DNA of 64,000 bases, from positions 1 through 64,000 of the IMG/VR virus record IMGVR_UViG_3300028048_000081. The stretch is one strand, 5' to 3'. The notes beneath the pieces are model-generated. The model worked only from the letters and a program-made list of their open reading frames with translations. It did no database searches and had not been told where the DNA came from. A program made the position numbers and the translations under genes. Source of the DNA: a virus (lineage: Duplodnaviria > Caudoviricetes). Of this stretch, positions 33,604 to 62,105 are shown piece by piece (position 1 is the stretch's first letter; every line of letters begins with the position of its first letter).

Positions 33604-34008
33604 ATGCTCAAGGATATCAGAATATTTTCAATTGTATTTGAGGCGGTAAGAAGGGATCAAGTATCCGCTTTTGATCAGGTTTTTCATAAGGATGAATTAC
33701 CATACTATGGTTGGATACATTTACCTACAGATATTGCAAAATATTTAGATCTTGTAGAAGTTAAAAATGTAGATACAGATAAAGATGTAGATTTTCATTT
33801 AGATTGGGAAAGAGAAGATATACATCCTTGGTATAAATTACGTCTAGAGTCGTTAGATCTTACTCTAGGAACTCATATGTATAAGTTAAAATTTGATAAT
33901 ACATTCTTACATGATGAGTTAGATTTATATTTTAGATATACTATACAAGATGATAATCCAGATAAGCCATATGTATATATGAATAGATCTGAAGGTGAGG
34001 ATAAATGA
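33604..34008 (+). CDS. hypothetical protein
   Basis: tightly packed 134 aa ORF. Confidence 0.7.
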   Translation: MLKDIRIFSIVFEAVRRDQVSAFDQVFHKDELPYYGWIHLPTDIAKYLDLVEVKNVDTDKDVDFHLDWEREDIHPWYKLRLESLDLTLGTHMYKLKFDNTFLHDELDLYFRYTIQDDNPDKPYVYMNRSEGEDK

Positions 34009-39303: not shown

Positions 39304-40803
39304 TTGGCTAACAAATGGTGGGATAGATTAGTAACCCGAAAGACAAAATATTCTGGTGTTACATCTTATCTTCGTGAATTAGTAACAGGATCATTATACA
39401 AAGTATCAGATATGCGATCAGATTCTAGTATATCTGATATAAAAACTCAGATTGATACGATGCGTGCATTATCCAGGGACTCTCAGATAAGTACTGCATT
39501 ATCATATTATGCAACAGATGCAACTACTACGAATACTGCAGGTCATGTAATATGGGCAACAGCAACTGATGATTCTTCAGAAGACATAGCTGAAGTAATA
39601 AATGGGTTGTTTGCAAAATGGAATGTAGATGCATACGCAAGGGACCACATATTAGAGTTGGCAACAATAGGAAATCTATACATACCTACAACTTATATGT
39701 ATAAAGAGGATACTAGAAATCAATCTAACATAGGAGTAGTATTAGATAATAATACTATTCTAGATGAAGATTTTGATATAGTCCCTTCTTATAAGATACC
39801 TCCGGAATCAATTGTTCATTTATGGCAGAAAGGGGAACCAAAAGGGTTCATATTAGATCCAGATTCAGATAATATGAATTCTTCTGAAAGATTGATACTT
39901 CCTGAATCTGCATGTATACATTTTGCATTAGGTGGATTACTAGGAGATTATACACTTGATACTGAAGATAGTGAGGGGAATGAAGTTGAATATGATATTC
40001 AATTTGCAACTCCTATGTTATCTCAAGCAGTTCAACCTACACAAACATTACAGTTATTAGAAGATGCTAATATACTTTCGTCATTAACCAGAACAATCAA
40101 ATTTATACATGTTGAATGTGGTACTCAAGAAGAAGAAATTCGAGAATCTTTACAACAAATAAAAGATGCAATAGAGCAACAGATTTCTTTAAATACTGCT
40201 ACCGGAGATACACAGAGTTTTGTTAATCCACAGAGTCCTAATAACTTGATATATCTTCCGAAAATAAATGGAAATGAAGCATTAACAATTACAGATTTAA
40301 ATATGGCAGAATCAACCGATGCCGATAATAAACTTTTAGAGTATTATCAGGATAAAAAGTTATCTGTATTAGGTGTACCTAAAGAGGCAATGAACTACTC
40401 TTCAAATGAAGGATTGGGTGGTGCTGGAACAGTAATGTCACAAAGATCTGCATTGTATGCAAATCTACTTGATAGACTTGAAACTTCATATATGGCAGGT
40501 TGGAAACAAGCACTCAACAAATATTTCTTAGAAAGAAATCTTTCAGGATTCATTGATAAATTTGAACTTCACATGCAGCCTATCATAACCACACAGAGTA
40601 CCGTTCAATTTGAGAAACGTGATGCTGCATTATCTCAAGCTTCTGCAGCAATACAGATGCTCAAAGATATAGGAGTTAAAGATACTGATTCGTACTTGAG
40701 TGCATTAACAGAAATATTAACAGAGGTATTTCCACAGATGGGTGCTGAGTCTTCTACCTGGCATGCTGAAATAAATACAGAATCTGAAGGGGGTGGATTT
40801 TAA
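39304..40803 (+). CDS. portal protein
   Basis: 499 aa after terL; YYQDKKLSVLGVPK motif; TTG start after GAGGAGGTG. Confidence 0.75.
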   Translation: MANKWWDRLVTRKTKYSGVTSYLRELVTGSLYKVSDMRSDSSISDIKTQIDTMRALSRDSQISTALSYYATDATTTNTAGHVIWATATDDSSEDIAEVINGLFAKWNVDAYARDHILELATIGNLYIPTTYMYKEDTRNQSNIGVVLDNNTILDEDFDIVPSYKIPPESIVHLWQKGEPKGFILDPDSDNMNSSERLILPESACIHFALGGLLGDYTLDTEDSEGNEVEYDIQFATPMLSQAVQPTQTLQLLEDANILSSLTRTIKFIHVECGTQEEEIRESLQQIKDAIEQQISLNTATGDTQSFVNPQSPNNLIYLPKINGNEALTITDLNMAESTDADNKLLEYYQDKKLSVLGVPKEAMNYSSNEGLGGAGTVMSQRSALYANLLDRLETSYMAGWKQALNKYFLERNLSGFIDKFELHMQPIITTQSTVQFEKRDAALSQASAAIQMLKDIGVKDTDSYLSALTEILTEVFPQMGAESSTWHAEINTESEGGGF

Positions 40804-42940: not shown

Positions 42941-43312
42941 ATGATAAAATATAAAAACTTATCCTCTTCCATAAAAACGTTTTATGGAATAAAATTTAGA
43001 CCTGGAGAAGTTCATTCAGTTCCGGGTCCAATCAACCATAAGAAGTTTATTCGGATTCCAGTATCTCAGGAACTTCCTAAGAACGTAAAAGCAAGCAGTA
43101 AGAACTATTCTTGGAAACCTTCGGAAAAGAAATCACAGGATAAAGTAACTGCTGAATCAATGAAAGAGACGAAGAAAGAATCAGAAGATAAGGAAACTCA
43201 TCATAAGAGGCCATATCATAGAAGAAAGACTGAATCGGATTCGTCTAACACGGATAAATCTTCAATTCAGAAACCAGTAGAAACTAAAGAAGAAGAAGGA
43301 GGAAAAGAATAA
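42941..43312 (+). CDS. small protein with charged low-complexity tail
   Basis: AGGAGG RBS after AACCTT motif. Confidence 0.7.
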   Translation: MIKYKNLSSSIKTFYGIKFRPGEVHSVPGPINHKKFIRIPVSQELPKNVKASSKNYSWKPSEKKSQDKVTAESMKETKKESEDKETHHKRPYHRRKTESDSSNTDKSSIQKPVETKEEEGGKE

Positions 43313-45729
43313 TGGCGCAAATAGTTATAAATGAAGTAAGCCAAAATTATTCATATAATATTGGTAATAACTCATTTGCTACTGTTGCTCTCCCTATTAC
43401 AGCATGCTGGGGTCCAGGATACTTTGAGCCGGATACTAATGAAGGCGAAGAGGTAGATCGTGAAGAAATGTTGGAATACACTGCTTGGCAAAGATTTCCA
43501 GCAAATCAAACAGGACTTGAGTCATTTGTTTCAACATATAGGGGTCCAGCAACAAATTACAGACTTACTCAGGATTATTCGTACCAGATGGCAATGACAC
43601 TTATGACTGCGGGGTATGATGTTCTTACATGCAGATTATCCCCAGGAATAAAATCGGAAGGTCTTTTGATGACAAAAGATAAATCCGGTTCTGTTCATGT
43701 TAAGGCTAAGTATCCTGGAACATTTGGTAATAATCTCCGGGTAGAGATTAAAAAGTTTTCTTATAAGAAACGTCAGAATGGTCAATATGTAAATGGGTAC
43801 TATTGGAATCTCATTACATCGATAATTGATGATTCTGGAATTAAAACATCTTTAGAGAATAAGACTTTTGTATTCCAGATTGAAAATGCTTCAGATACTA
43901 TTGTACATTGGAGTGAAATTGATTCTAATTTCATTGATCTTGAAGTAGACGGTACTATATTAGATGCAGAAACAACTGAATTTGATTTTGTAGATAACGA
44001 AGGTAAACAGATACCGGAAGATAAACGTCTTAGTGCAATTCCTTATACAGACCTTATTGGAGGAACTGATAAGGCTGCTAATCCTGAGATAGATGCTGAA
44101 GTTCAAGCTGCATTTGATGCTGCAGAAGAAGCATTTGAGCCTTATAAATCTCTGTTTGATGATAATCCAGAGAATCATGAATTGGAAATTGCATATGCAA
44201 ATGCTGCTGAAGAATATAATACTGCTAAGACAGCTTACAAAACTGCAACAGGACTTGATTTTGATGAAACTACTACTGTTGAAGCTGCGGAAGCAGATGC
44301 AGAAAGTAAGAAGGATGCACATGATGCTGCAATAGAAGTTCCAGAAGATGAAAGAACAGATGAACAGAAAGCTGCAATAAAAGCATATGAAGATGCACTT
44401 CTTAATGTATCTGCTGCTCAAGCATATAAGGATAAAGTAGATGCTAAAGCTGAATTAGATGCTGCAGTAGAAGGGCCTGCAGCAGATGCTCTTGCAGCAT
44501 ATGAAGATGCAAAGATTGCATTAGAAAGTTCTGTATTTGATCAGCTCATGGAACAAGCAATTGATCTTGCGGAGTCTAGATATGAATATGATGGATCCGA
44601 TTATTCTGGATACAGATATCTTTCATGTCTTGCAGATTTTGCAGGGGGCGGATCGAATGATGTTGTTAAAGCAAGTAATATCAGGTATCTTGAATGGCTG
44701 TATACAAACGCAGTAGGATATAAAACTTCAACAGGACAGGTAGAAGGTGTTTATGATCTTCTGAAAGATAAACTTACTTACAATCCTAATAGAATTGCAA
44801 GTCCGGGTTGGGATGATCAGAACATCAGATACATAACAGATGAAGATGATTTATATGATGATCTCAGATTGTCACCTCTTTCGTTGAAGATTTTAGATGT
44901 TGCATATTACAGTAGATGTGCAACAGGAATGATTGATATTCCAAGGAGTCTTAAGAGATCCAAAGTTTACAACGATGATATTGATCCGGATAAAGAAGGA
45001 TATGTTCAGAAGTTAGCAAGATACATACCTGATGATACTGCAGGAGATGTAAATGGGTCGCTTTATCAGTCTCATTCAGCTATATTTGGCCCTTGGGGCA
45101 AATATACATATGTAGGGACAAGTAAACAAGCAATCGCTTCTCCGTCATTCCTTGCACTTATGATTCAAAGAGCACAGATTTTGAATCAGGCAAATCAATT
45201 TGAGTGGGCACTTCCGACAAACAGAAAGCATAATCTCAGAATTGGAAAGATGGATTACAATGTTCCAAAGAAACTTTTGGATACATGGCAAACTCTTGAA
45301 GGAGTAGGTGTAAACGTAATTACAACTATTCCGGATCTTGGAACTAACATCTGGGGTAATTCAACATTGTTCGAAGTACCTCCTGCAACATATCAAGCAC
45401 TTGCGAATCTGTCAACAAGATATCTTGTAAATGCGATAGAAGATGTCATTTACAGAGTAGGAATTGGAATAACATTCAGTTATAATAATGACCAAGCATA
45501 CAATAAATTCTATGCAGGATGTACTCCAATCTTAGATACGATGAAGAATGTCGGAGCAATCGATGATTACTACGTAAAGATGTCGGCAGATATAAACGGA
45601 CTTGATCATGTAAATGCTAATTCCGTAATCGGAAAAGTTTATCTTGTGGTCAATGGAGTTATAAACGATATCACCTGTGATCTTGTTGCACTTCCGCCGG
45701 GGGTAGATCTTAACCAGTTTAGAGGATAA
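43312..45729 (+). CDS. tail sheath protein with Ala/Glu-rich helical insertion
   Basis: AKYPGTFGNNLRVEI, IWGNSTL, NLSTRYL, GAIDDYYV. Confidence 0.85.
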   Translation: MAQIVINEVSQNYSYNIGNNSFATVALPITACWGPGYFEPDTNEGEEVDREEMLEYTAWQRFPANQTGLESFVSTYRGPATNYRLTQDYSYQMAMTLMTAGYDVLTCRLSPGIKSEGLLMTKDKSGSVHVKAKYPGTFGNNLRVEIKKFSYKKRQNGQYVNGYYWNLITSIIDDSGIKTSLENKTFVFQIENASDTIVHWSEIDSNFIDLEVDGTILDAETTEFDFVDNEGKQIPEDKRLSAIPYTDLIGGTDKAANPEIDAEVQAAFDAAEEAFEPYKSLFDDNPENHELEIAYANAAEEYNTAKTAYKTATGLDFDETTTVEAAEADAESKKDAHDAAIEVPEDERTDEQKAAIKAYEDALLNVSAAQAYKDKVDAKAELDAAVEGPAADALAAYEDAKIALESSVFDQLMEQAIDLAESRYEYDGSDYSGYRYLSCLADFAGGGSNDVVKASNIRYLEWLYTNAVGYKTSTGQVEGVYDLLKDKLTYNPNRIASPGWDDQNIRYITDEDDLYDDLRLSPLSLKILDVAYYSRCATGMIDIPRSLKRSKVYNDDIDPDKEGYVQKLARYIPDDTAGDVNGSLYQSHSAIFGPWGKYTYVGTSKQAIASPSFLALMIQRAQILNQANQFEWALPTNRKHNLRIGKMDYNVPKKLLDTWQTLEGVGVNVITTIPDLGTNIWGNSTLFEVPPATYQALANLSTRYLVNAIEDVIYRVGIGITFSYNNDQAYNKFYAGCTPILDTMKNVGAIDDYYVKMSADINGLDHVNANSVIGKVYLVVNGVINDITCDLVALPPGVDLNQFRG

Positions 45730-48945: not shown

Positions 48946-49134
48946 ATGATGTATAAGAATGATAAAGATTTGGTAGCGGATGAGTGTATTCGTGTAGCAG
49001 ATGATTTGTCTGAGTTATTAGATAAACTCTCAAAGCTTCCTGATGTGTATGATTATCTTGCAGAAGAAGAGATGAATGAATTAGGGGACGCTCATGACAT
49101 ATTATTTGATTTAAATTATTATTTAAAAAATTGA
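48946..49134 (+). CDS. small acidic protein, paralog of 49962..50132
   Basis: AAGGAGG RBS; shared DY...EM..L.D..DIL.D. Confidence 0.7.
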   Translation: MMYKNDKDLVADECIRVADDLSELLDKLSKLPDVYDYLAEEEMNELGDAHDILFDLNYYLKN

Positions 49135-49141
49135 TTTTCTA

Positions 49142-49170
49142 TTGACATCTGATAAAATATATTATATAAT
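49142..49170 (+). promoter_or_regulatory. perfect sigmaA promoter
   Basis: TTGACA-N17-TATAAT. Confidence 0.85.
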
Positions 49171-49633: not shown

Positions 49634-49945
49634 ATGAAAAGAGTAATAAAATCTTCATACTATTATGATGATGAAGAATACGATAGAGTAGATAGAATGG
49701 GGGATCCTAAGGAGATTGCTATTGCTGCGATTGCATACAATTATGGCATATCTAGAGAAGAAGCAATGAAGGAATACGAAGATATAGATGAAGAGAAATT
49801 AAGATCCTTCATTTCATATTATTTTCTTAGAGATATACCTGTAACTCCAGGAGGGAAAAATAATCATAAAAGTTTCAATAAAGAAGATTTTCAATCTTCT
49901 TCTGATGAGGCAGCACAGGATGTATGTGATGAATTATTTGGGTAA
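49634..49945 (+). CDS. tagged small acidic protein (MKRVIKSS)
   Basis: shared N-terminal motif, RBS. Confidence 0.75.
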   Translation: MKRVIKSSYYYDDEEYDRVDRMGDPKEIAIAAIAYNYGISREEAMKEYEDIDEEKLRSFISYYFLRDIPVTPGGKNNHKSFNKEDFQSSSDEAAQDVCDELFG

Positions 49946-49961
49946 TATTTAGGAGGATATT

Positions 49962-50132
49962 ATGGGAGATAAGGTTGAAGATGTAGCTTTAACATTAGGA
50001 GATCTTTTGACAGAAATGCAAGATGATCCTTCAATTTCTGATTATATTTCAAAAGATGAAATGGATAGATTGTGGGATTCTTATGATATTCTTATGGATG
50101 CATCTAAAATGATGGATCAGGATGAAGAATAG
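49962..50132 (+). CDS. 56-aa acidic protein (not in ORF track)
   Basis: AGGAGG RBS; MGDKVEDVALTLGDLL... Confidence 0.7.
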   Translation: MGDKVEDVALTLGDLLTEMQDDPSISDYISKDEMDRLWDSYDILMDASKMMDQDEE

Positions 50133-50146
50133 AGAAGGAGTACATT

Positions 50147-50563
50147 ATGAAAATAATAAAAGCAAGTAGAACTTTTGATAAATGGTACGATCTATTGTCC
50201 AAAGAAGATCAGACCTGGGTAGATGATCTTGCAGATAGTGAAGGACTTCCGTATTATGATGATTGTTCTGAATCAGATTTAAATTTTCTGATGAGTGCAT
50301 ATCAAAATCATTTTGACAAGTTTGGTGCGGAAGAAGATCCGGATTATCTTAGAATCAAAAAGATATCAGATTTTCTAGATAAAGAATATCCTGATTCTGT
50401 AGAACCTGGAACAGATGGATATTTCCTCAAATGGGGAGATGAGACTGCTGTTCAGGAATATGGATATGATGAAGCACAAAGAATATGCGACGATATACTT
50501 GAGGAAACGGGTATAAATGTAAATATATCTGGAAACGGTGAATTTGTTGTAGCATATTATTGA
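50147..50563 (+). CDS. tagged acidic protein (MKIIKAS); C-domain paralogous to 55631..55891
   Basis: PG..GY..KWG...YG......DI...TGI shared. Confidence 0.75.
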   Translation: MKIIKASRTFDKWYDLLSKEDQTWVDDLADSEGLPYYDDCSESDLNFLMSAYQNHFDKFGAEEDPDYLRIKKISDFLDKEYPDSVEPGTDGYFLKWGDETAVQEYGYDEAQRICDDILEETGINVNISGNGEFVVAYY

Positions 50564-50585
50564 TAAGTTAGAAAGGTGATATATT

Positions 50586-51563
50586 ATGAAAGTTTATATT
50601 CATGCAGCAGAAGATGCTGATAAAAAAAAGTTAGCGAGAACAAGCGAAGATCCAAAAGTTCTTGCAAAATTGTCTGATGATGAGGGTATGGAAGTAAGAC
50701 TTGGAGTTGCAAATAACAAAAATACTCCGCCAGAAATTCTTGCAAAATTAGCCGATGATGAGAATCAGTATGTGAGACATGAAGTTGCAGATAATAAAAA
50801 CACTCCGGTAGAAGTTCTTGCAAGATTAGCTGATGATGAGGATCGGAGTGTGAGATGGTATGTTGCACAGAATCCAAGCACTCCAGCAGAAGCTCTTGCA
50901 AAATTAGCTGATGACGAGGATCCTGATGTGAGAACGATACTTGCATTAAATTCAAACACTCCTCCAGAAGCTCTTACAAGATTAGCTGATGATGAGTATT
51001 TTAAGGTGAGAGAATATGTTGCAGATAATTCAAACACTTCTCCAGAAGTTCTTACAAAATTAGCTGATGACGAGGATCCTGATGTGAGATGGTATGTTGC
51101 AAAAAATAAAAACACTCCAGCAGAAGCTCTTGCAAAATTAGCTGATGATAAGAATAAGAGTGTGAGACGAGAAGTTGCATATAATGAAAACACTCCGGCA
51201 GAAATCAAAGAGAAGTTAACACAAAAATCAAATAGAATAAACTGGAAATCAATTGTTAATCAAATTAAATCTGAAGGCGAAGACGGAAGAGATTCTCTTT
51301 ATGAGCAAACAAACGCCGGAATGTATATTGAAGGTTTACAAAATCAAGTAGAAGATAAATTAGGAGTATGGTTAGAACCCTCAATTGAAGGAGGAATGGG
51401 TGGAATCTGGATCTACTCAAACAAGGATGACTCAACGCTTGCAGAAAATATAGATTATGAAGGATTCAATGAAGATGTTCTTGATGCAGCTTGCAACTCC
51501 AAGAACAAAACAGAATTCTTAAAATGGTATAAATCTTATCTTGAAAGCTTGATCGGAGAGTAG
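50586..51563 (+). CDS. tagged LRV/HEAT-like repeat protein (MKVYIHAA)
   Basis: about 8 24-aa repeats LAKLADDE...VR..VA.N.NTP. Confidence 0.85.
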   Translation: MKVYIHAAEDADKKKLARTSEDPKVLAKLSDDEGMEVRLGVANNKNTPPEILAKLADDENQYVRHEVADNKNTPVEVLARLADDEDRSVRWYVAQNPSTPAEALAKLADDEDPDVRTILALNSNTPPEALTRLADDEYFKVREYVADNSNTSPEVLTKLADDEDPDVRWYVAKNKNTPAEALAKLADDKNKSVRREVAYNENTPAEIKEKLTQKSNRINWKSIVNQIKSEGEDGRDSLYEQTNAGMYIEGLQNQVEDKLGVWLEPSIEGGMGGIWIYSNKDDSTLAENIDYEGFNEDVLDAACNSKNKTEFLKWYKSYLESLIGE

Positions 51564-51578
51564 AAATAGGAGAAACAT

Positions 51579-51917
51579 ATGAAAAAAGTAATCATATCAA
51601 GAAAAACGAATTCTTCATATCTTAATTCGGTATTTGGAAGTTCAATAAGTTCTAGATATAATAAAGTAAGAAGAGTATTTTATGATGTAGCTAAGACCTG
51701 GAAAGATTCTGCCAATATAGATATTGAAGTTGCGGATGACGGTAGAGGTATAACATATCCAAATAAAAATAATTTTCCCTTCACACAACGTGTAGATGTC
51801 AAGATGGTACCAGAATATCATCTGTATAATAATTTACAAGATGAAATACTGGTGACAACAGATTTATCCGAACTTGAATCCACTATCTCTGATGTAGTTT
51901 CTGAAGATATCAAATAA
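51579..51917 (+). CDS. tagged small protein (MKKVIIS)
   Basis: AGGAG RBS. Confidence 0.7.
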   Translation: MKKVIISRKTNSSYLNSVFGSSISSRYNKVRRVFYDVAKTWKDSANIDIEVADDGRGITYPNKNNFPFTQRVDVKMVPEYHLYNNLQDEILVTTDLSELESTISDVVSEDIK

Positions 51918-52006
51918 TGACCAAAATTCCAGAGGTATCATCATACCACACCATATATAAAACCGTGAGAGAACTTAAATCTCACGGTCGTTTACTGTAA
52001 GGGCCA

Positions 52007-52660
52007 TTATTTGAAGGCGTAGACGCGTTGACCACAGTCATATAGTGGTACGTACCCTGAATTTAACATATGTTCTCTAGAAAAATGCTTTTGACGACGA
52101 GACGCGTCAGAAATTCTATCGTTATTTCGTATCCACCATAGTGTTTTCTGATTGTCACGGATATATTTCATTCCGATATATTCATAATCTTTAAAATTTT
52201 CAAATGACATGTTAACATAAGCTACGATATTACTTATTCCAAAGTTAGATGCTTCTTGAGATAATATATCATATCCATGTTTAATATCATATGTTGGTAA
52301 CATCCACATCCGAGATAATTCTGCATCATATTTTTTGTTTCGTGATTTTTTGAAAGTCATGATGCAGTAAATTTCATTATCTTTGATAAGACCTAGTGCT
52401 AAAACATTTCCTTTAGGTGACTTGAAGGGGTGATATTCATCTAACCATCTGTTTGCAACATTAATATCTAATCTGTATGTATTGAGAGTATGTCCGTCAA
52501 CAACATGTATTCGAGGTTCTTGATAAAATATCAAAATATCTTTTTTGGTTTCAAATGTATGTTGTCGTTTTTGTTGAACTTCTTTAAGCATACATACATT
52601 CTTAACACCATATCTTTTCAAACATGTTTGTTGTCTTTTTTCATTAGAGTTAATTTTCAT
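52007..52660 (-). CDS. protein with TCLKRYG repeat and Mom/GNAT-like domain, no nuclease core seen
   Basis: similar to C-half of 53945..55591 (ELSR, YDCG). Confidence 0.65.
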   Translation of the reverse strand: MKINSNEKRQQTCLKRYGVKNVCMLKEVQQKRQHTFETKKDILIFYQEPRIHVVDGHTLNTYRLDINVANRWLDEYHPFKSPKGNVLALGLIKDNEIYCIMTFKKSRNKKYDAELSRMWMLPTYDIKHGYDILSQEASNFGISNIVAYVNMSFENFKDYEYIGMKYIRDNQKTLWWIRNNDRISDASRRQKHFSREHMLNSGYVPLYDCGQRVYAFK

Positions 52661-52751
52661 TAAATAAAAAATCCAGATACTCTTTCAAAGTAGTGTTTCT
52701 AGCTTCATCAAAATATTTATTTTTAGATTCTCGCAGATATTTCCATTCCAT
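52650..52751 (-). CDS. 33-aa upstream ORF
   Basis: GGGGG RBS, MEWKYLRE..., overlaps next ATG. Confidence 0.35.
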   Translation of the reverse strand: MEWKYLRESKNKYFDEARNTTLKEYLDFLFNEN

Positions 52752-52883
52752 CTTAAGTCCCCCTACAATTATATTATAACGAATTTTTATTTGTAAATAA
52801 ATATATAATATAAAAATACTTTTAAAGGTATCAAATCTTATATATCTACATAAAATATAGATTATTTATAAGGAGGTAGAAAA

Positions 52884-52907
52884 ATGTTTAGTCCTTTACA
52901 AATGGGT
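52884..52907 (+). CDS. tail tube protein, exon 1 (MFSPLQMG)
   Basis: AAGGAGG RBS; in-frame TAG two codons into the intron. Confidence 0.7.
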
Positions 52908-53277
52908 AACTAGTGCCCTTCATATTGAGTAATCAGTATGAACTACCGAGTTAATTGCTTTGAATCCCTAAAGCTCTCTTGCTACAGTGAATTCAGAAAT
53001 GAAAAACACGATAGAGCGAAAGCAGAAAAAAGTAGAGAGATGTTACATGGTTAAATCCTAAATAATATTGCAATGGGTGTTTAGCAGCCAAACTTCTAAT
53101 CAGATTGTATGAAGTAGGTCCAACGATCATCTCCTTGAGGGAGAGTAGAACTGCAAGCAGATGGCAGAAGAAAAATTCGGGCCCTAGTTACATAGGGATA
53201 AGATATGATCTCATCTTCAATGAAAGTTGAAGCAGTATAAACGGTACAGACGTTGCGAATCTGTACGAAGATAATGT
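52908..53277 (+). mobile_element. ORF-less group I intron (boundaries +/-1 nt)
   Basis: P1 GGGT/GCCC; AATTGCTTTGAA, TTAGCAGCCAA, CCAACGATCA, AAGATATGATCT elements; td-like ...ATAATG end. Confidence 0.8.
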
Positions 53278-53799
53278 ACCAACCATATGCTTGGGGTAGA
53301 TAATTATGTTCCATTAACAACAAACAACTTTGAGGTTAGAATATACAACATGGATGGGAGTTCCCCATCAGAATTTTCAGAACTTCTTACATTATCGACA
53401 GATGAAGTAGGAGATATTCAAGAAGAACAAGATTCTATTGTTGTACATTATGGTAATGGTCTTATCAAGTTTCCAAGTAAAGTAACATTTGGAGATGTTG
53501 ATTGGACTCTCAACTGCTATTGTGAACCAAATGTCCTTGGAGCACTTAGAGAGTGGAGAAAACAAGTTTATGATCCTGATACAGAGAGAATGGGTCTTCC
53601 GTCAGAATACATGAGACAAGTATTCTTCTTAAGGTATGATGGTCAAGGAAATATCAGAGATGGCGTGAGATGCCCGGGAACTTGGATCGGAGCACTTGAT
53701 AACGGTGCAATGTCTCAGCAAGGCGGAGATGTCGTTAAAGTTAGAGTTCCGTTTGTTATTTCTAGAGCGATTTATATGACACCTGAAGATTTGAGATAA
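53278..53799 (+). CDS. tail tube protein (T4 gp19-like), exon 2
   Basis: NNFEVRI, LREWRKQVYDP.T..MG..SEY...F.RYD..G; 170 aa frame lacks its own RBS. Confidence 0.8.
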   Translation, partial: TNHMLGVDNYVPLTTNNFEVRIYNMDGSSPSEFSELLTLSTDEVGDIQEEQDSIVVHYGNGLIKFPSKVTFGDVDWTLNCYCEPNVLGALREWRKQVYDPDTERMGLPSEYMRQVFFLRYDGQGNIRDGVRCPGTWIGALDNGAMSQQGGDVVKVRVPFVISRAIYMTPEDLR

Positions 53800-53835
53800 G
53801 TTGGAATTCTGGAAAATAATTATATATACATATAT

Positions 53836-53872
53836 AAATAAAGGTCAAATTACGGCCTTTATTTATTTTTTT
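53836..53872 (+). terminator. terminator-like hairpin
   Basis: AAATAAAGGTC...GGCCTTTATTT then Ts. Confidence 0.55.
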
Positions 53873-53944
53873 GTATTTTTAAATGTGCTCCTATCCAGTT
53901 AACCTTTTATATGTACGAATCGTTATCACATATGAGGAGTACAT

Positions 53945-55591
53945 ATGAAGCCTAAAAAATGTAAAGAATGTGGAAAAATATTTTTCCCTAAAAGTGGATC
54001 CCAATTGTATTGCAATGGGCCTCATGAATCTATTTGTGTAATATGTGGCAAGAAATTTCCATATACATGCAGACCGACTGAAAAACCTAAAACTTGTTCA
54101 AAAGAATGTCAAGAGAAGTTACGATCGAGGACAGCATTTGAAAAATATGGAGTTAAAAATGTTTCTGAATTAGATTCTGTTAGAAAGAAGATAAGTGAAA
54201 GAAATAGTTCTAAAGAAGTTGATCTAAAAAGACGAAAAACAAACTTAGCCCATTGGGGAGTAGATAATCCTTCCAAGAATAAAGATATTCGTGAGAAGTT
54301 ATCTGCTGTAATGAAAACTGAAAGGTATTTATCTGGTAGAGAGACCACATGTTTAGAAAAGTATGGTTATCGCAGTCCTATGCAATCAGATGTAGTTAAA
54401 GATAAACAGAGAAAAACATGTTTAGAACGATATGGTATGTCAGGGCATCCCCATACAGCGGAAGATTTTTCTAGAATGATGATAGATAGTTCTAAATGCA
54501 AAGATTATATTATGTTTAGATCGGATCCAAAGAAATATATTGAAGATCATTATTCTACGCCCCCATCCATATATGAACTTAAACGGGACTTAGGAGTTAC
54601 AGATACACCAGTATATGATATATTAATTGCAAAGAATTGTAGGGATTTATTGCTTAGCAGTTATAGCTATATGGAGAAAGATGTATCAGATTTCATAGTA
54701 TCGTTAGATCCAAACATTGATATAGTTAGACATGATAGAAAAATTATCCAACCTCAAGAATTAGATATATATTTACCAGAATATAAATTAGGTATTGAGT
54801 GTAATCCAACCGCTACTCATAATTCATCATTTAAAGATCCATGGGGAGGGGACCCTAAATATTACAAGTATCATCAGAATAAATCCATGAAATCTGGCGA
54901 CGCGGGGGTTTTTCTGTTTCATATATTTGGATATGAATGGGTGAATCGTAGGCATGTAATTGAATCTATGCTTGCAAATCTATTAGGTAAGAACAAATAT
55001 AAGTATGGTGGTAGAGATACATATGTATGCAAAGTATCTCCAGAAGAAAGTAAACAATTTTTAAACGATAATCATCGTCAGGGTAGTACAGTATCTAAGG
55101 TTCAAATTGGTCTAAGATTAAAATCTAACGATAAATTAGTATCCATAATGACGTTTGGTCATACACGTAATACTATAGGAAAAACGGATGATTCTACAGA
55201 AAATACCTGGGAACTTTCTAGATTCTGCAATAAACTGTATACTACAGTAAATGGGGGTGCAAGCAAGCTGTTCAAATATTTTATTGAAAATTATTCATTT
55301 GATAAGATTATTTCATTTTCAGATATAGCTCATACTAAAGGTACGCTATATGAAAAATTGAATTTTCATCAGATTTCTATATCTGCTCCAAGTTATGTTT
55401 GGTGTGATGGATATGATAACATATACTATAATAGAGTTTCTTGCCAGAAATCAAATCTTAAGAAATTATTGAAAGATGATAGCATTGATATTGAAAATCA
55501 ATCCGAAGCAAAGATAATGGAAGCACATAAATTTGCTCGAGTATATGATTGTGGAGTAATCAGATGGGAATATAATTATCATGAACCTTAA
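53945..55591 (+). CDS. free-standing Hef-like endonuclease: Zn fingers, TCLEKYG repeats, PD-(D/E)xK core, Mom/GNAT-like C-domain
   Basis: ELDIYLPEYKLGIECN; WELSRFC...GGASKLF...SFSD...GTLYEKLNF...YDCG. Confidence 0.7.
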   Translation: MKPKKCKECGKIFFPKSGSQLYCNGPHESICVICGKKFPYTCRPTEKPKTCSKECQEKLRSRTAFEKYGVKNVSELDSVRKKISERNSSKEVDLKRRKTNLAHWGVDNPSKNKDIREKLSAVMKTERYLSGRETTCLEKYGYRSPMQSDVVKDKQRKTCLERYGMSGHPHTAEDFSRMMIDSSKCKDYIMFRSDPKKYIEDHYSTPPSIYELKRDLGVTDTPVYDILIAKNCRDLLLSSYSYMEKDVSDFIVSLDPNIDIVRHDRKIIQPQELDIYLPEYKLGIECNPTATHNSSFKDPWGGDPKYYKYHQNKSMKSGDAGVFLFHIFGYEWVNRRHVIESMLANLLGKNKYKYGGRDTYVCKVSPEESKQFLNDNHRQGSTVSKVQIGLRLKSNDKLVSIMTFGHTRNTIGKTDDSTENTWELSRFCNKLYTTVNGGASKLFKYFIENYSFDKIISFSDIAHTKGTLYEKLNFHQISISAPSYVWCDGYDNIYYNRVSCQKSNLKKLLKDDSIDIENQSEAKIMEAHKFARVYDCGVIRWEYNYHEP

Positions 55592-55630
55592 ATATATATG
55601 AAACATTATTCTATATAGGAAGGTATAAGT

Positions 55631-55891
55631 ATGAAACGAGTTATTACATCCGGAACAAGAAGTCCACGTAAAGAAAATATAAGGAAGATATGTGATTACA
55701 TGGATTGGAATCTTCCTACATTTTCTGATCCTGGATCATACGGGTATTCATGTAAATGGGGCGGTAGAACTTTAGTTGATAAGTATGGTATAGAACAGGT
55801 TGAAGAGTGGATACAAGATATAAAAGACGGAACTGGAATAGAATGTAAATTAACTCGTTCCGGAAAATTAATTGTTCCTTACGCAGAATAG
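55631..55891 (+). CDS. tagged small protein (MKRVITSG)
   Basis: shared motif; paralog of 50147 C-domain. Confidence 0.75.
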   Translation: MKRVITSGTRSPRKENIRKICDYMDWNLPTFSDPGSYGYSCKWGGRTLVDKYGIEQVEEWIQDIKDGTGIECKLTRSGKLIVPYAE

Positions 55892-55933
55892 ATATACACA
55901 TCTTGAAAATTTTATTGGATAGAGGTTCAAACA

Positions 55934-56338
55934 ATGTATAGATACATAAGATCATCCGAAATAACAAATTCTAGAATAAGAAAATGTAAGAAATTAGTTC
56001 GTGATTATATATGGCAGTGTTTTTCTCAAGGTGGGGAATATTTCAATGATCCAGAAATGTTATCTAATATTGAATATATGAAATGGTATGATTCTGACGA
56101 AGATATTAGTTGGGCAGAATATGTATACAAACATAGACATGATATATTTGATAAGTATATTTTAGATAAAATAGAAAATGATCCTGAAATAAAAACAGAA
56201 GAAGAGCAAAACTGTATGATTGATTATTTTAATAATTTACAGCCGTCAGATTATAATCGGATACTATATCTTAAAAGAGATTCTACTAAAGATGGTATAT
56301 CTAATAGAATTCGTAGAATAAGGGAATATGATAAGTAG
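55934..56338 (+). CDS. tagged protein (MYRYIRSS)
   Basis: shared motif, GAGG RBS. Confidence 0.75.
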   Translation: MYRYIRSSEITNSRIRKCKKLVRDYIWQCFSQGGEYFNDPEMLSNIEYMKWYDSDEDISWAEYVYKHRHDIFDKYILDKIENDPEIKTEEEQNCMIDYFNNLQPSDYNRILYLKRDSTKDGISNRIRRIREYDK

Positions 56339-56361
56339 ACATTCAACATAGTATTTTCATC

Positions 56362-56395
56362 AAAGAGATCTTCTAATCAGGAAGGTCTCTTTTAT
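56362..56395 (+). terminator. terminator-like hairpin
   Basis: AAAGAGATCTTCT...GGAAGGTCTCTTT. Confidence 0.6.
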
Positions 56396-56479
56396 TATAC
56401 TGATTCGTTATTTATTATGTAGAACCTTGTATAAATTTAGAAGAAATATTTAAGTTAAAATAGAAAGAAGGACGTAGAG

Positions 56480-56893
56480 ATGAAGTTATATGTTCGTTCA
56501 GCTTTTGATGACAACATGAATTTTGTTGCAGTAATAGATTCAAAAGGCTATGAAGATTATTCAAGTATAATACCGATATTGAATGCTGAAATTGACAGAT
56601 ACAATAGCATATTTGATAGAGTTGAATCTTTACCTCCAGAAGAGTATGAACAGATTGAAAACAATAATGAGGATTATAAGAAGTTTGTAGATACCTTTCA
56701 AAAATATTATGAATATATAGATAGGATGGAAGAAGCATTAGATTCTGATGAATTCATAGTAGATGAAAACAATAATCATAATGTAGATAACAGTATAACT
56801 GTTAGAAATCGTATATTTACATATGAAGATTTAATTGACATACTTTCTGAACTGAAAGAATGTCGTATCAATTTTGAAGATGAGGTGAAATAA
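56480..56893 (+). CDS. tagged acidic protein (MKLYVRSA)
   Basis: shared motif, downstream of AACCTT. Confidence 0.75.
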   Translation: MKLYVRSAFDDNMNFVAVIDSKGYEDYSSIIPILNAEIDRYNSIFDRVESLPPEEYEQIENNNEDYKKFVDTFQKYYEYIDRMEEALDSDEFIVDENNNHNVDNSITVRNRIFTYEDLIDILSELKECRINFEDEVK

Positions 56894-56894
56894 A

Positions 56895-57080
56895 ATGACA
56901 GTAGGAGAATTAAAAGAAATTGTAAATTCTATTCCGTCAGAAGATGATGACAAGAGAGTATTTGAATTTCGCGGTAATCGGTATTATGATTTTGATCTTT
57001 ACGGGTTAGATGAATGTGAAGTACAGGCTGAGTATTACGTTTATCAAGGATACTGCGTAGATATGGACCCAGGATATTGA
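56895..57080 (+). CDS. small acidic protein (MTVGELKE type)
   Basis: GAGGTG RBS. Confidence 0.7.
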   Translation: MTVGELKEIVNSIPSEDDDKRVFEFRGNRYYDFDLYGLDECEVQAEYYVYQGYCVDMDPGY

Positions 57081-57094
57081 TAAGGAGGTTTATG

Positions 57095-57727
57095 ATGAAA
57101 AGAGTTATTACAAGTACTGTTCAAAGTATGGATACAAAGGATTTTCAATCTTATTTTGAAAACAAATATGGATTTGAATTAGATTTTGCAAGAAGAACAG
57201 TAGAGGGTTTGAATGAAAAATACAGTGGGGAAATAATTTGTATTCCTACAGGTATTGGGCAGGCGATGCCATCCTCATATTCTAACTATGATTGTCTTCG
57301 TAATATGTTAGGAGAATCGAAAGATTATGAATTGACAGAAGATGATGTATTAGAAGTAATGAAGACGATAAAACAGGATTTTCAAAATGATCATCCGATG
57401 TCCTCTACAAGTGTTAGGTTCCGTGGAAATCTTCGTCAGATTCATATTAGAATATCGTCATCTTATGAATTAACAGATATTAATGATATTACTAAAGCAT
57501 GTGTTAAGGGGACAAATAAGATAGTAAAAAGTACTGAAACTAAATGTAATAAAGTAATGGATACATTGGATGAATTGCTTGATTATTCTGAAGGAAATGT
57601 AAAATTAACATCTGAAGGATATAATGAAATATCTGAAAATTTGGATAGCCTTATAAATTATATAGATGTTAACTTAATTGATAGAATAAATAAATATAAG
57701 AGCAATTTAAAAAACCGAGTTGAATGA
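57095..57727 (+). CDS. tagged protein (MKRVITST)
   Basis: AAGGAGG RBS; start 57092 or 57095. Confidence 0.75.
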   Translation: MKRVITSTVQSMDTKDFQSYFENKYGFELDFARRTVEGLNEKYSGEIICIPTGIGQAMPSSYSNYDCLRNMLGESKDYELTEDDVLEVMKTIKQDFQNDHPMSSTSVRFRGNLRQIHIRISSSYELTDINDITKACVKGTNKIVKSTETKCNKVMDTLDELLDYSEGNVKLTSEGYNEISENLDSLINYIDVNLIDRINKYKSNLKNRVE

Positions 57728-57764
57728 GTACATACTGTTTTAGCTCTAGGGGAGAGATATTAAT

Positions 57765-58019
57765 ATGTATAGATATATAAGATCAGATTCTGAAGGGGAA
57801 ATTATCAGCTGGGATTCATTATCCGGATCAGATCAACTTGCTGCAGAAAGAGCATCTGAATACATGAGTGAAGGAATGAGTATCGAGGATGCAGTCCGTA
57901 AAGGATGTATGGATATTTCTGAAGGCAATTCAGAACCTGAATATGAAAATGAAGATTTCTATTTAGAGGAACCAGATTACAATAAAGTATTGAAATACAT
58001 GAAGGGTAACGAAAGGTAG
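57765..58019 (+). CDS. tagged acidic protein (MYRYIRSD)
   Basis: shared motif. Confidence 0.75.
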   Translation: MYRYIRSDSEGEIISWDSLSGSDQLAAERASEYMSEGMSIEDAVRKGCMDISEGNSEPEYENEDFYLEEPDYNKVLKYMKGNER

Positions 58020-58023
58020 CAGT

Positions 58024-58248
58024 ATGAAAAAATACATAAAATCTTCAGAAGAATGGGAAGAATGGGACGGAGTATTCACTCCGGAATTCATAATGGAATA
58101 TTCTGATATAGAAGATGAAGATGAAGCACAAAGACTTTCTGATTATCTGTATGAACATGAATATGATTCAGGATTTTCAACACCTGAAGAATTTCTTGAA
58201 ACATTTGATTTAGATGAATTATACGATGATATGATTAATGAACAATAG
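58024..58248 (+). CDS. tagged, extremely acidic protein (MKKYIKSS)
   Basis: shared motif; very D/E rich. Confidence 0.75.
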   Translation: MKKYIKSSEEWEEWDGVFTPEFIMEYSDIEDEDEAQRLSDYLYEHEYDSGFSTPEEFLETFDLDELYDDMINEQ

Positions 58249-58262
58249 ATGAGGAGAATAAA

Positions 58263-58604
58263 ATGAATGTTATTCATTCAAATATTTCAAGTAGTGCAAA
58301 ATGCATAGAAACATATAAAGGATATAGAATATATTTCGATGAAGGAACTGCAACATATCATATTTTCTTACATGATACAAAAATAGAATTTCCAGATATG
58401 TCGGAAGTAACAGAATACATAGACGATATTTCATTAGAAGACACAGAAGATCTAAAAGAATATGAAGTAAGATACATAGACGCAGATGATATTACACACA
58501 GTACAGATGTAGTTGCTGTATCTGATAAAGATGCGATGTCTAAAGCATGCTCAATGTTAGGAAGCAACTGTTATAGAATAATAGATGTATCCGAATTAAA
58601 ATAG
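58263..58604 (+). CDS. small acidic protein (MNVIHSNISSS, variant tag)
   Basis: GAGGAG RBS. Confidence 0.7.
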   Translation: MNVIHSNISSSAKCIETYKGYRIYFDEGTATYHIFLHDTKIEFPDMSEVTEYIDDISLEDTEDLKEYEVRYIDADDITHSTDVVAVSDKDAMSKACSMLGSNCYRIIDVSELK

Positions 58605-58617
58605 ATAGGGAGGCAAT

Positions 58618-58863
58618 ATGTATAAATATATAAAATCTAATTATGCTGGATCGCAACCTATGAAAATATATAATGTATACTTCAAAGATCAGTTTTATGG
58701 TCAAGTTGAAGCAGAATCCGAGGATGATGCCTGGTATCAGTACGAAGATGTAATTCCAGGGGATGAATTGGCTTCGGTTGATCATGATTATCTTCCAGAT
58801 TATATTTTTGTTGTACCTGCGGATGAAGATGATATTGAAGGCTGCGATAAAGTATCATGGTAA
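58618..58863 (+). CDS. tagged acidic protein (MYKYIKSN)
   Basis: GGAGG RBS; may continue to 59041 via a frameshift. Confidence 0.7.
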   Translation: MYKYIKSNYAGSQPMKIYNVYFKDQFYGQVEAESEDDAWYQYEDVIPGDELASVDHDYLPDYIFVVPADEDDIEGCDKVSW

Positions 58864-59055
58864 AGAAGAAATAGTACCTGTTTTAGCAAGGTTCATCTGC
58901 CACTACGGTTATGAGGGACAAACATTTCATAACAAGAAAGATGCAGCAGTTCTTGCACTTGAACTCTTAGAAGAAATGACCGGAACATATTGGGATCCTA
59001 CTCAAGAAGAGTTTGACGATATATTATATAGCATATATTAGAAAGGTGTGTAATC

Positions 59056-59322
59056 ATGAAGCGAGTTATAATTTCTTCTACAATAGCGGATATGGAGAAA
59101 GATATCAAGAAGAGTAAGAATAAGCTCAAGAAGAAACCATTAGTAGAAAACTTCGGACAAGATGAAGTAAGACGTATAAGTGATAAGTATTTTGATCTTC
59201 AGATAGAAAACTATCAGCAATACAGCTCACTTATCAGAGAATTTTCAGATTGGTGTGCAAATTATGAAGGGGACAACATAAGATCGTCTGTTCATTCGTC
59301 TGAAGATATTCATAAAGGATGA
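59056..59322 (+). CDS. tagged protein (MKRVIISS)
   Basis: shared motif; C-terminal IRSS/VHSS copies. Confidence 0.75.
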   Translation: MKRVIISSTIADMEKDIKKSKNKLKKKPLVENFGQDEVRRISDKYFDLQIENYQQYSSLIREFSDWCANYEGDNIRSSVHSSEDIHKG

Positions 59323-59323
59323 T

Positions 59324-60451
59324 ATGTTAGATTACAGATACGCACCAGAATTAGAATCAAAAGTAATATCTAATATAAAATTAGATTATAATTGGATATT
59401 AGTAAATGATGAATCCAAAGTTAAATCTCATTCCATTGTATTCATATATGAAGATACAGATAGGAGATTTTTAGATTCGCTTTTTAGATATTCCGATATC
59501 ATATTAGTATACATAAATAGAAAAATAGATGATAGTTTAAAAGATTTCAGGAGTATAGAATTAAAAGCAATTTCAGATTCCAATCGTATGATACGGTATC
59601 CTGAAGAAGTAACACTATATTTAGAGTCAGGTTTAAAGACCGTTATAAATAATGAAGATAAATTATTGTTAAAACATAAGTCAAAAGAAATGAAGAAAGA
59701 TAACTGGTATGAACGGTATCTTTGTAATGACGGGCAAGCAAATCTAGATGATACACCAAAAGATATAGTATATGTATTAAAGAATGATGTTAAAGCAAAT
59801 GAATTAAGGTACAGTCTGAGATCTGTAGTTAAAAATTTCAAATTCAATCGCATATTCTTCTATGGGGGATGTCCGAAAAACATTCACCCAGATGTTTATG
59901 TAAATTATGAACAGTCAGGAAAAACTAAATATGCTAGAACACGTGGAATGTTTAAAAGTATATTTACAAATAATGATATAACAGAAGACTTCTGGTTATT
60001 CAATGATGATTTTTTCATATTAAGACCTATTGATAGAGTACCTTATATAATAGATGGAACAGTTCAAAAGTATAGGGATGCGATTAGGAAAAGATATGGA
60101 AGAGATTCTGTTTACACTATTAGATTAAGTAAATCAATAGATATACTTGAGAAACATGAACTAGACACTTTAAATTATGAATGTCATGTCCCTATGTTAA
60201 TAAATAGAAACAAAGGCCGAAGACTTCTTAGAGTATTTGATGATGATGCAATATTCAGAAGTACTTACGGGAACTATTTTAAAGTAGGGGGAATGATACA
60301 GAAGGATGTAAAGATCATAAGTTTAAAGAGTATTCCTGAAAATAATGATATATTGCTTTCTACATCAGATGAAAGTTTTAAACACGGAAAAGTTGGAAAA
60401 TATATAAAGGATATGTTCAGCGATAAATGTAGATATGAGGAGGGTATTTAA
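59324..60451 (+). CDS. Stealth-like sugar phosphotransferase/glycosyltransferase
   Basis: DIVY...ELRYSLRSV...FNDDFF. Confidence 0.6.
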   Translation: MLDYRYAPELESKVISNIKLDYNWILVNDESKVKSHSIVFIYEDTDRRFLDSLFRYSDIILVYINRKIDDSLKDFRSIELKAISDSNRMIRYPEEVTLYLESGLKTVINNEDKLLLKHKSKEMKKDNWYERYLCNDGQANLDDTPKDIVYVLKNDVKANELRYSLRSVVKNFKFNRIFFYGGCPKNIHPDVYVNYEQSGKTKYARTRGMFKSIFTNNDITEDFWLFNDDFFILRPIDRVPYIIDGTVQKYRDAIRKRYGRDSVYTIRLSKSIDILEKHELDTLNYECHVPMLINRNKGRRLLRVFDDDAIFRSTYGNYFKVGGMIQKDVKIISLKSIPENNDILLSTSDESFKHGKVGKYIKDMFSDKCRYEEGI

Positions 60452-60825
60452 TGAAGAAATATATTAAATCATCCAGTGGTTATAATAAAGTAGAAATAAT
60501 GAGTTCTGAGGATGGCTTGTATACACTTTATGAAGAAGAAGGTGTGGGAAGAAATGATACTCGTTATACAGGCCTTATAGTAGAATCTTTTGGTACTGCA
60601 TATGATAATGTAATAGAAATAAGACCTATAGCGAAAAATTCTCCAGAATTCAATGGTGGAAAAGTAAAGTACGAATATTCCGGATGTTATATTTCGCATG
60701 GTATGAACGGGCATACAGACACATTAGAAGAAACAGAACAGTATATTTCAGATCTTCAATCTGCTGTCAAGTTTGCTAAAAGAATAAACAATTACATTCG
60801 AGATGCTTGGACGAGGATATTTTAA
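60451..60825 (+). CDS. tagged protein (MKKYIKSS)
   Basis: shared motif, GAGGAGG RBS. Confidence 0.75.
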   Translation: MKKYIKSSSGYNKVEIMSSEDGLYTLYEEEGVGRNDTRYTGLIVESFGTAYDNVIEIRPIAKNSPEFNGGKVKYEYSGCYISHGMNGHTDTLEETEQYISDLQSAVKFAKRINNYIRDAWTRIF

Positions 60826-60848
60826 TTAATAAGGAGTGTATGATAATT

Positions 60849-61148
60849 ATGAAAAAGTATGTTAGATCTAGTAGTCAAGATGTACAGGGAATTGTAGACA
60901 AGTGCAATGAAAATGTCCCGGAACTGCTTTCTAAATTGATGGATGCGTTATATGGATTACAATCATTACAGGAAGATATGGATCCGGTAAGTGATTATGA
61001 AGTGTCAATTCGACATAAGAATGGTCAAGAATATTATTCTGGTCAGAATGAATTTGAAGATTTAGATGCTTGTAAACACAATATAGACGGAGCAGTTGAT
61101 TCTATAAATGATGCAATTGAATATCTTTCGGACTGGAAGGGCATGTAA
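60849..61148 (+). CDS. tagged helical protein (MKKYVRSS)
   Basis: shared motif; AAGGAG upstream. Confidence 0.7.
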   Translation: MKKYVRSSSQDVQGIVDKCNENVPELLSKLMDALYGLQSLQEDMDPVSDYEVSIRHKNGQEYYSGQNEFEDLDACKHNIDGAVDSINDAIEYLSDWKGM

Positions 61149-61274: not shown

Positions 61275-62105
61275 ATGGCAATTTCCGAAACTGTTGAATT
61301 GCTTGGAAAAGGATTATATGATACTATTCCAGATACTTTAACTCTAAAAGCTATACCTACAGCGTCTGAGCTTGAGGAAGTAGGTAATGAAGATTTTGAT
61401 AAAACAATGTTAGAATCTGTATTGCCTCAAGCTGTTGAAGAGAAGATAGATTTCAGAGATCTTCTTGAAATTGATTTTCAGTGGATATGTAGATGTTTGA
61501 GAATTCTAAATTACGGTCCATATCACACTACAAATGTTATTTTTTGTGATAAGTGTGGAAAATCTTCTTATGGAGAATATGTAGTAAATCTTAAAACAAT
61601 AGAATGCAAACCTCTTCCAGAAGGATTTGTAAATGATATAGAAATAAAGAGAGATGAATTCATAGATTTTGATGGAGATATTCATATTAAACTTCCTACC
61701 ATTCAGCAAGTTCTCAATTCACAGAAAGATAAAGCATTTATGAATTCTAAGGGAGAAGTTAATAGAGAATTATCTAGAATATGTTATATGATATCTTCTG
61801 TAAAAGGAAAAGATACGTTGACACCTCCAGAAATAAAAATATTACTTCAAGACCAAATGTCCTCGGCAGATTTCTTACTGTTAAAGGGCAGAGTAAGAGA
61901 ATTAACGGATTATGGATTAAGAGCAGGAGGATCTGCTCAATGTCCTAAGTGTGGAAATCCAGATGCAGGATTTTTAGCACTTGTAGACGATAGATTTTTT
62001 CGTCCGTCCCTGGGAGCTTTACGACAGTGGAAGCTTGATAGAAGTTCAGGGGAAGATGAAAACACATCAAGAAGTAAGACAGGAACTGTACGAAAACATA
62101 GTTGA
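61275..62105 (+). CDS. tail/baseplate assembly chaperone (T4 gp26-like)
   Basis: CDKCG and CPKCG, ..FF end motif; upstream of tape measure. Confidence 0.6.
   Translation: MAISETVELLGKGLYDTIPDTLTLKAIPTASELEEVGNEDFDKTMLESVLPQAVEEKIDFRDLLEIDFQWICRCLRILNYGPYHTTNVIFCDKCGKSSYGEYVVNLKTIECKPLPEGFVNDIEIKRDEFIDFDGDIHIKLPTIQQVLNSQKDKAFMNSKGEVNRELSRICYMISSVKGKDTLTPPEIKILLQDQMSSADFLLLKGRVRELTDYGLRAGGSAQCPKCGNPDAGFLALVDDRFFRPSLGALRQWKLDRSSGEDENTSRSKTGTVRKHS

Follow-up and report, generated by a model that had tools for sequence, protein, structure and literature searches.

The window analyzed here is a stretch of 64,000 nucleotides that forms the left half of one 124,241-bp contig from an uncultured gut phage (IMG/VR record IMGVR_UViG_3300028048_000081), and its positions are also genome positions. 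Between positions 49634 and 61148, it carries about 15 small genes whose largely unrelated products share an eight-residue N-terminal start. Comparison of these starts with the head proteins of the phage and its relatives makes it probable that the start is a capsid-targeting and cleavage tag in the style of phage T4, recoded to suit a protease that, like herpesvirus assemblin, cuts behind small residues. The tag ends in a motif that is apparently cut by the T4-type head protease, so the tagged proteins are probably loaded into the capsid and clipped there. In the mechanism that we propose, tagged proteins would enter the core of the assembling prohead, the gp21-family (Pfam S77) prohead protease would remove the tag, probably between residues 7 and 8, and the mature, mostly acidic proteins would remain in the head and exit with the DNA at infection. 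This cut would place Ile or Val at P3 and Ser or Ala at both P1 and P1', and since Ile is retained at P3 as in the I-x-E site of T4, a cut after residue 7 is the most likely register. The protease of this lineage would cut after Ala or Ser instead of Glu, like assemblin, with the tag altered to match. We infer cleavage, the cut position, packaging, injection, and roles after injection (such as anti-defense or DNA mimicry) from sequence patterns.

An earlier note on this DNA had listed 14 such starts, and all are present, each with a Shine-Dalgarno site 5 to 10 nt upstream; the pattern M-[KY]-x-[YV]-[IV]-x-[SA] describes the 13 canonical ones. The genome is about 32% G+C, with coding almost entirely on the plus strand. 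We derived the expression M[KY][KRLIV][YVI][IVY]x[SAT] from the listed starts and tried it at each ATG of the 124,241-bp genome, all six frames included, which returned 13 gene starts within 49634-60849 and only two sites elsewhere, neither of them a gene start. By our own gene calls, 12 of 22 genes match in the 48.9- to 61.2-kb region versus 0 of 127 outside it (Fisher p = 4e-12), and the N-terminal residue composition of the other genes predicts 0.012 matches. A bias of start-codon context or of translation initiation in AT-rich DNA, which the note had named as what could explain the starts away, is therefore rejected as their origin. The start is not equally common at other genes, and the replication genes lack it, as the note had stated.

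Searches with the tube protein and the capsid protein yielded 39 and 50 related IMG/VR loci, respectively, about 90 in total (L numbers below designate related loci or contigs). The 108 distinct tags of the relatives give the consensus M-K-[RK]-[YV]-[IV]-[KR]-[SA]-[SA], with Ile constant at residue 5 of the minimal 8-residue start across 108 distinct proteins, and conservation ends after residue 8. The residues are kept although codon use varies freely: AGA, CGA, and CGT all occur for Arg, each of the three Ile codons is used, and Ser has codons of the TCN as well as the AGY type. It is therefore the peptide, and not the DNA, that is under selection. The tags carry no conserved Glu. No paper containing the tag strings was found. 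Some of the starts that had been listed fit the canonical form only in part: those at 50147 and 58263 are one residue shorter, the one at 35021 has a longer leader, and the one at 1134 is a variant whose ortholog in a relative has the tag-like start MNQVIYSA. Two or three shorter variants lie within the same stretch as the canonical starts. The tagged and variant genes are as follows.

49634..49945, plus strand: tagged, MKRVIKSS; 103 aa, body pI 4.3
50147..50563, plus strand: short variant, MKIIKAS; 138 aa, C-terminal domain paralogous to 55631
50586..51563, plus strand: tagged, MKVYIHAA; 325 aa, LRV/HEAT repeats
51579..51917, plus strand: tagged, MKKVIISR; 112 aa
55631..55891, plus strand: tagged, MKRVITSG; 86 aa, body near neutral, AACCTT 47 nt upstream
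55934..56338, plus strand: tagged, MYRYIRSS; 134 aa, L004 ortholog starts MKLYVKSG
56480..56893, plus strand: tagged, MKLYVRSA; 137 aa, AACCTT-N-TATA 57 nt upstream
57095..57727, plus strand: tagged, MKRVITST; 210 aa, without a family match
57765..58019, plus strand: tagged, MYRYIRSD; 84 aa
58024..58248, plus strand: tagged, MKKYIKSS; 74 aa, Asp plus Glu 39%, L071 ortholog starts MKIYVKGS
58263..58604, plus strand: short variant, MNVIHSN; 113 aa
58618..58863, plus strand: tagged, MYKYIKSN; 81 aa
58823..59041, plus strand: possible extra variant, uncertain, MKMILKAA; overlaps the end of the preceding gene, without a clear ribosome-binding site
59056..59322, plus strand: tagged, MKRVIISS; 88 aa, body near neutral
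60451..60825, plus strand: tagged, MKKYIKSS; 124 aa
60849..61148, plus strand: tagged, MKKYVRSS; 99 aa
35021..35215, plus strand: longer leader, MKVSKKSIKSS; 64-aa open reading frame directly upstream of the terminase genes
1134..2198, plus strand: variant, MKIIKDS; 354 aa, L008 ortholog in the tube-flanking region

The head genes of the phage provide the second line of evidence. The portal, protease, and capsid protein are all of the T4 type.

39304..40803, plus strand: T4 gp20-type portal (Portal_T4 match, 2e-14)
genome 90065-91450: S77/gp21-like protease (Peptidase_S77, 28.1 bits with a cut-off of 27; phrog_207 head maturation protease, 3e-22)
genome 91484-92938: capsid protein (Gp23 match, 7e-20)

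HMMER searches of PDB sequences with the protease, as a single sequence and as a profile, gave no match. The top structural match of its modeled N-terminal domain is T4 gp21 (5JBL; Foldseek, E = 1e-3, probability 1.0), and His71 and Ser126 are invariant in the protease family. The capsid propeptides of 41 distinct relatives have a median length of 71 aa and are basic (18.8% Lys plus Arg, 0.9% Asp plus Glu). Together they contain 172 [IV]x[AS][AGSNT] motifs versus 43.6 +/- 6.2 after shuffling, and the motif is 4.3-fold less dense in the mature part. There are about four [IV]-x-[AS]-[AGS] motifs per propeptide in about 40 relatives, and the last motif, I-[TM]-[AG]-A, stands immediately before the conserved TNT...PDF start of the mature protein. 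Eighteen of the 41 propeptides have no Glu at all, so a Glu-specific cut is impossible for those 18. Directly after the protease domain, [IVL]-A-A-[SA] is invariant in 45 relatives, in the form I/V-A-A-S. The predicted [IV]x[SA][SA] sites for which head proteins were to be checked are thus enriched in the capsid propeptide and present after the protease domain. The tag itself occurs in the head module: in certain clades only, MKKVIHAA or MKKRYIRSA is added to the N-terminus of a conserved, acidic 120-aa protein whose gene lies just upstream of the protease gene. In a second head-region family, the leaders differ in length, all end in I-x-A-[AS], and precede an acidic body. The interpretation in the earlier note is partly supported: its core idea, a signal resembling the T4 capsid-targeting sequence (CTS) with the rule [IV]-x-[SA]-[SA], is borne out by these gp20/gp21/gp23-type head genes, by the motif shared with head proteins, and by the add-on tag.

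The small-residue motifs appear to be confined to a narrow lineage. An exhaustive HMMER search of 1.84 billion representative proteins returned one full-length representative of the window's capsid clade, at 73% identity, the next relative being at 35%. Nearly all of the more distant gp23 homologs (35% identity or less) have acidic propeptides with L/I-x-E sites and without small-residue motifs. The nearest cultured phages, Bacillus HSE3, Streptococcus GXN1, and Listeria LIS04, have acidic propeptides of the Glu type, and the tag is absent from them (0, 1, and 0 pattern matches in 482 kb total). The nearest cultured capsid proteins reach only 26% identity, and no cultured phage record gave a megablast match for the tag region. 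The characterized gp21-type proteases all cut after Glu, at L/I-x-E in T4, S/A-x-E in phiKZ, and A-x-E in SPN3US, and the same holds for 201phi2-1 (PMC9026906, PMC10052503). That a lineage of the gp21 family has given up cutting after Glu and now cuts after Ala or Ser in the manner of assemblin, and that the 8-residue tag suffices to load any protein, is a bolder proposal that we offer tentatively and would put somewhat below an even chance.

The bodies that follow the tag are diverse. They are unrelated overall, as had been described, except for one pair among the tagged proteins, 50147 and 55631, which are linked by BLASTP (E < 0.05). The claim that they are mostly very acidic holds as well (median body pI 4.7), 55631 and 59056 being the near-neutral exceptions, and in the relatives, pI is below 5 in 72% of tagged proteins versus 39% of untagged ones. 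Pfam and PHROGs matched nothing in the tagged proteins of the window except the LRV/HEAT repeats in 50586. Among 99 tagged proteins, about 94% had no Pfam match and about six did; the matches found in tagged proteins are to LRV/HEAT and LRR repeats and, in a relative, to one YodL-like domain, a domain typical of the polyvalent proteins that conjugative elements of Firmicutes encode (PMC5512222). A homolog search of 5.8 billion proteins found a sole relative of 60451, with 47% identity and the start MKRVIKAS. ESM Atlas searches with 57095 and 60451 gave no usable lead, and an AlphaFold model of 60451, built from two aligned sequences, was of too low quality (pLDDT 44.5) to be used.

Across the related loci, 115 tagged proteins fall into 84 BLAST families, mostly singletons. 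Bodies diverge between orthologs while the tag is retained, and in one relative, L038, several tagged genes are paralogs. One complete relative (162.8 kb) contains 20 strict tag starts, none of them on the noncoding strand. The idea of a modular library stands in so far as the tagged genes are a variable accessory set, with 0 to 20 or more strict tag starts per related genome. The sheath, tube, 271-aa, and tape-measure genes stand side by side in the minimal relative L010, which indicates that the tagged genes, together with two homing endonuclease genes, are accessory insertions in variable spots.

Several observations weigh against the reading of the start as a T4-style tag. The motif is short and of low complexity, and even the mature capsid protein contains 1.3 per 100 aa. 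Acidic bodies are less obviously suited to dense packing beside DNA; the internal proteins of T4 are basic. Some relatives with the same capsid propeptide have no strict tag matches, which suggests that the system is dispensable. In addition, two promoter-like sites hint that some tagged genes may be transcribed early, and such timing would be at odds with prohead assembly. One is a strong host-type site at genome 97321, upstream of a second tag-like gene group (99.7-106.7 kb); the other, a perfect site of the host type, lies upstream of the first tag cluster.

49142..49170, plus strand: perfect TTGACA-17-TATAAT promoter-like site, directly upstream of the first tag cluster

Residues 2 to 4 of the tag (K-R-Y/V) are also unlike the residues before the internal propeptide sites (R-R-S/P), so a partner other than the protease could read the tag. 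Such a partner might be a chaperone, a modifying enzyme, or a factor that loads the tail lumen, in which case the likeness to the protease motif would be coincidental. The location of the tagged genes among tail genes and not head genes agrees with this explanation, which we nevertheless think unlikely: the tag also occurs on the head-module protein beside the protease gene, related phages whose capsid propeptides have Glu sites lack the tag, and no candidate partner emerges from the neighboring genes. In the 39 tube-flanking loci, no gene family co-occurs with tag-rich loci except the homing endonuclease, which is found in 12 of 12 tag-rich loci versus 16 of 27 others (p = 0.008, uncorrected), and the 375-aa gene at 59324 is a singleton without a homolog in any of the approximately 90 related loci. 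A model of the ribosomally synthesized and post-translationally modified peptide (RiPP) kind, with a leader and its modifying enzyme, was rejected, no enzyme family being associated with tag-rich loci. A Prp/L27-type leader, of the kind known in Staphylococcus phage 80alpha, was likewise rejected; the sequences are unlike, and the phage has its own protease.

The start could instead be a protease site without being a targeting signal, with the proteins reaching the prohead by other means or being processed or degraded without retention and injection. It is true that the cleavage motif is all that the tag shares with the capsid and protease sites. However, the position of the motif is fixed, with the same Ile in 108 proteins, whereas the length of true propeptide leaders is variable. 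The N-terminal unit therefore seems to matter in its entirety, as it does in the T4 CTS, and a site without targeting is distinctly unlikely. We regard as very improbable the remaining explanation, that the common start is what is left of a single ancient family of paralogs, or that it is an element of the nucleotide sequence, such as a translation-initiation or recombination site, instead of a functional peptide signal. The paralogy of 50147 with 55631 and of several L038 genes, and the frequency of A-rich codons after ATG in AT-rich genomes, would suit it, but it is largely refuted by the codon variation and by the lack of matches among the 127 other genes, and it also has to face the 84 families and a conserved head gene that has gained the tag.

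Returning to the capsid-targeting reading, the closest known counterpart is the CTS of T4 IPI, IPII, IPIII, and Alt. Both phages have a gp20/gp21/gp23-type head system and a short N-terminal leader (8 residues here, 10 in T4), which has Ile at P3 of the protease motif at its end. In both, the leader is carried by proteins that are otherwise unlike one another and whose genes vary between related phages; the T4 leader also begins M-K-x-Y. Unlike T4, P1 is Ser or Ala here instead of Glu, there is no homology beyond the first residues, and far more genes are tagged (about 15, and 20 or more in a relative), located between tail genes. Encapsidation is established for the T4 leader, while packaging in the present phage is deduced from sequence. 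In T4 IPIII, the 10 N-terminal residues are enough for encapsidation, and gp21 removes them; the CTS residues that matter for targeting are mainly 4 and 7, and those that matter for processing are 8 and 10 (PMC9026906). The T4 IP genes are diverse, and the CTS is their only common part (PMC3012670). The concept is thus known from T4, and what would be new here is the recoded tag, an altered protease specificity, and a much larger cargo set.

In the giant phages (phiKZ gp175, SPN3US gp245, and 201phi2-1), a gp21-family protease also processes many head proteins, and the propeptides have several redundant sites (PMC10052503, PMC9026906). Their proteases, however, cut after Glu (S/A-x-E or A-x-E), and their propeptides are mostly 20 to 254 residues long in contrast to a fixed 8-residue tag. 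Herpesvirus assemblin cuts after Ala before Ser or Thr, for example at the R site YLQA-T and the M site VQA-S of pseudorabies virus (PMC4498786). As a sequence pattern, this resembles Y-I-K-[AS]-[SA] of the tag and I-A-A-S after the protease domain, and in both cases the protease is fused to a scaffold-like C-terminal region, with I-A-A-S here at the position of the release site. Unlike assemblin, the present enzyme belongs to Pfam S77/T4 gp21 and not to S21, and the protease model has weak structural matches to herpesvirus (S21) proteases (E about 0.5). Assemblin is not, to our knowledge, a protease that loads a library of tagged cargo. The Dar proteins of phage P1 and the polyvalent proteins of phages and conjugative elements likewise travel in the virion and are delivered together with the DNA, and the YodL-like domain of one tagged protein in a relative recalls the latter; they share no N-terminal tag and need specific head proteins, or fusion to MuF or portal domains, to be incorporated.

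If our interpretation is correct, a cut after small residues would be inferred for the first time for a gp21-type phage head protease, and the maturation proteases of phages and herpesviruses would be linked in specificity as well as in fold. A sequence rule would then predict the capsid-borne orphan proteins of an abundant uncultured gut-phage lineage and narrow the search for anti-defense and host-takeover functions. The injected proteome (15 proteins here and 20 or more in relatives, nearly all orphans) could be read from sequence, and it would represent a large untapped set of early-acting host-takeover or anti-defense proteins. An 8-residue loading tag would also offer a compact means of packaging foreign proteins in capsids, a use to which the T4 CTS has already been put.

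The region between the tail sheath gene and a conserved 276-aa gene is variable, and it contains the tail tube gene.

43312..45729, plus strand: tail sheath, left border of the variable region
52884..53799, plus strand: tail tube gene, split by an intron of about 370 nt (exon 1, 52884-52907)
61275..62105, plus strand: conserved 276-aa gene, right border of the variable region, directly after the tube gene in L010

Exon 1 of the tube gene begins with the ATG at 52884 (MFSPLQMG) and is followed by about 370 nt without an open reading frame; the frame resumes at about 53278 (TNHMLGVD), where it matches the uninterrupted MFTPLYMGTNHMLG start of the relatives. No Rfam intron family was matched in the tube-gene intron at E <= 0.1. 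Three paralogous HNH-type homing endonuclease genes are present, at 52007-52660 (minus strand), 53945-55591 (plus strand), and genome 77750-78772, and two of them flank the tube gene.

A second motif, AACCTT-N1-2-TATA, probably represents the late promoter of the phage lineage. It occurs 12 times on the plus strand of the genome and 0 times on the minus strand, mostly 30 to 60 nt upstream of structural genes, and across 1.5 Mb of related loci it occurs 117 times on the coding strand versus 4 times on the other.

5541, 42910, 45811, 53901, 56423, and 61215, and genome 78871, 86959, 99270, 106332, 115051, and 118050, plus strand: AACCTT-N1-2-TATA sites

Several tagged genes had been placed behind the shorter AACCTT motif; this is so for 55631 and 56480 and not for the others. 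A role as a tag-specific promoter was rejected, since the extended motif is no more frequent upstream of tagged genes than upstream of the rest. Perfect TTGACA-17-TATAAT sites number only two in the genome, the one at 49142-49170 and one at genome 113838, and three further sites on the plus strand match at 11 of 12 positions (18038, 97321, and 108331), all of them intergenic.

Strong Shine-Dalgarno sites favor a Firmicutes host. Three whole related phage contigs of 127-145 kb (L100-L102) lie in bins labeled Bacteroidaceae, Clostridia, and Muribaculaceae, and as these labels conflict, the bins give no reliable host.

Further tag-like leaders occur elsewhere in the genome. A second group of such starts lies at genome 99695-106726 (MKIVSS, MKRLSRINAA, MKRVVSN, MKRIASSS, and MKIKKSRIVAA), and two leaders adjoin the capsid gene, MFIQKRKITAG (genome 94204) and MKISNTKVEAG (genome 94600). 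Beside the terminase genes, 34005-34697 encodes a 230-aa protein whose leader is basic and ends in KIRAA; a very acidic middle part comes next, then the motifs SITSA and ITITSG, and last a C-terminal domain. It may be a further protease substrate. Untagged genes also lie among the tagged ones. The 375-aa gene inside the tag cluster (59324-60451) matches phrog_7999 (6e-39) and has sub-threshold similarity to Stealth_CR2, and two small acidic proteins, encoded at 48946-49134 and 49962-50132, are paralogs of each other with 40% identity over 35 aa.

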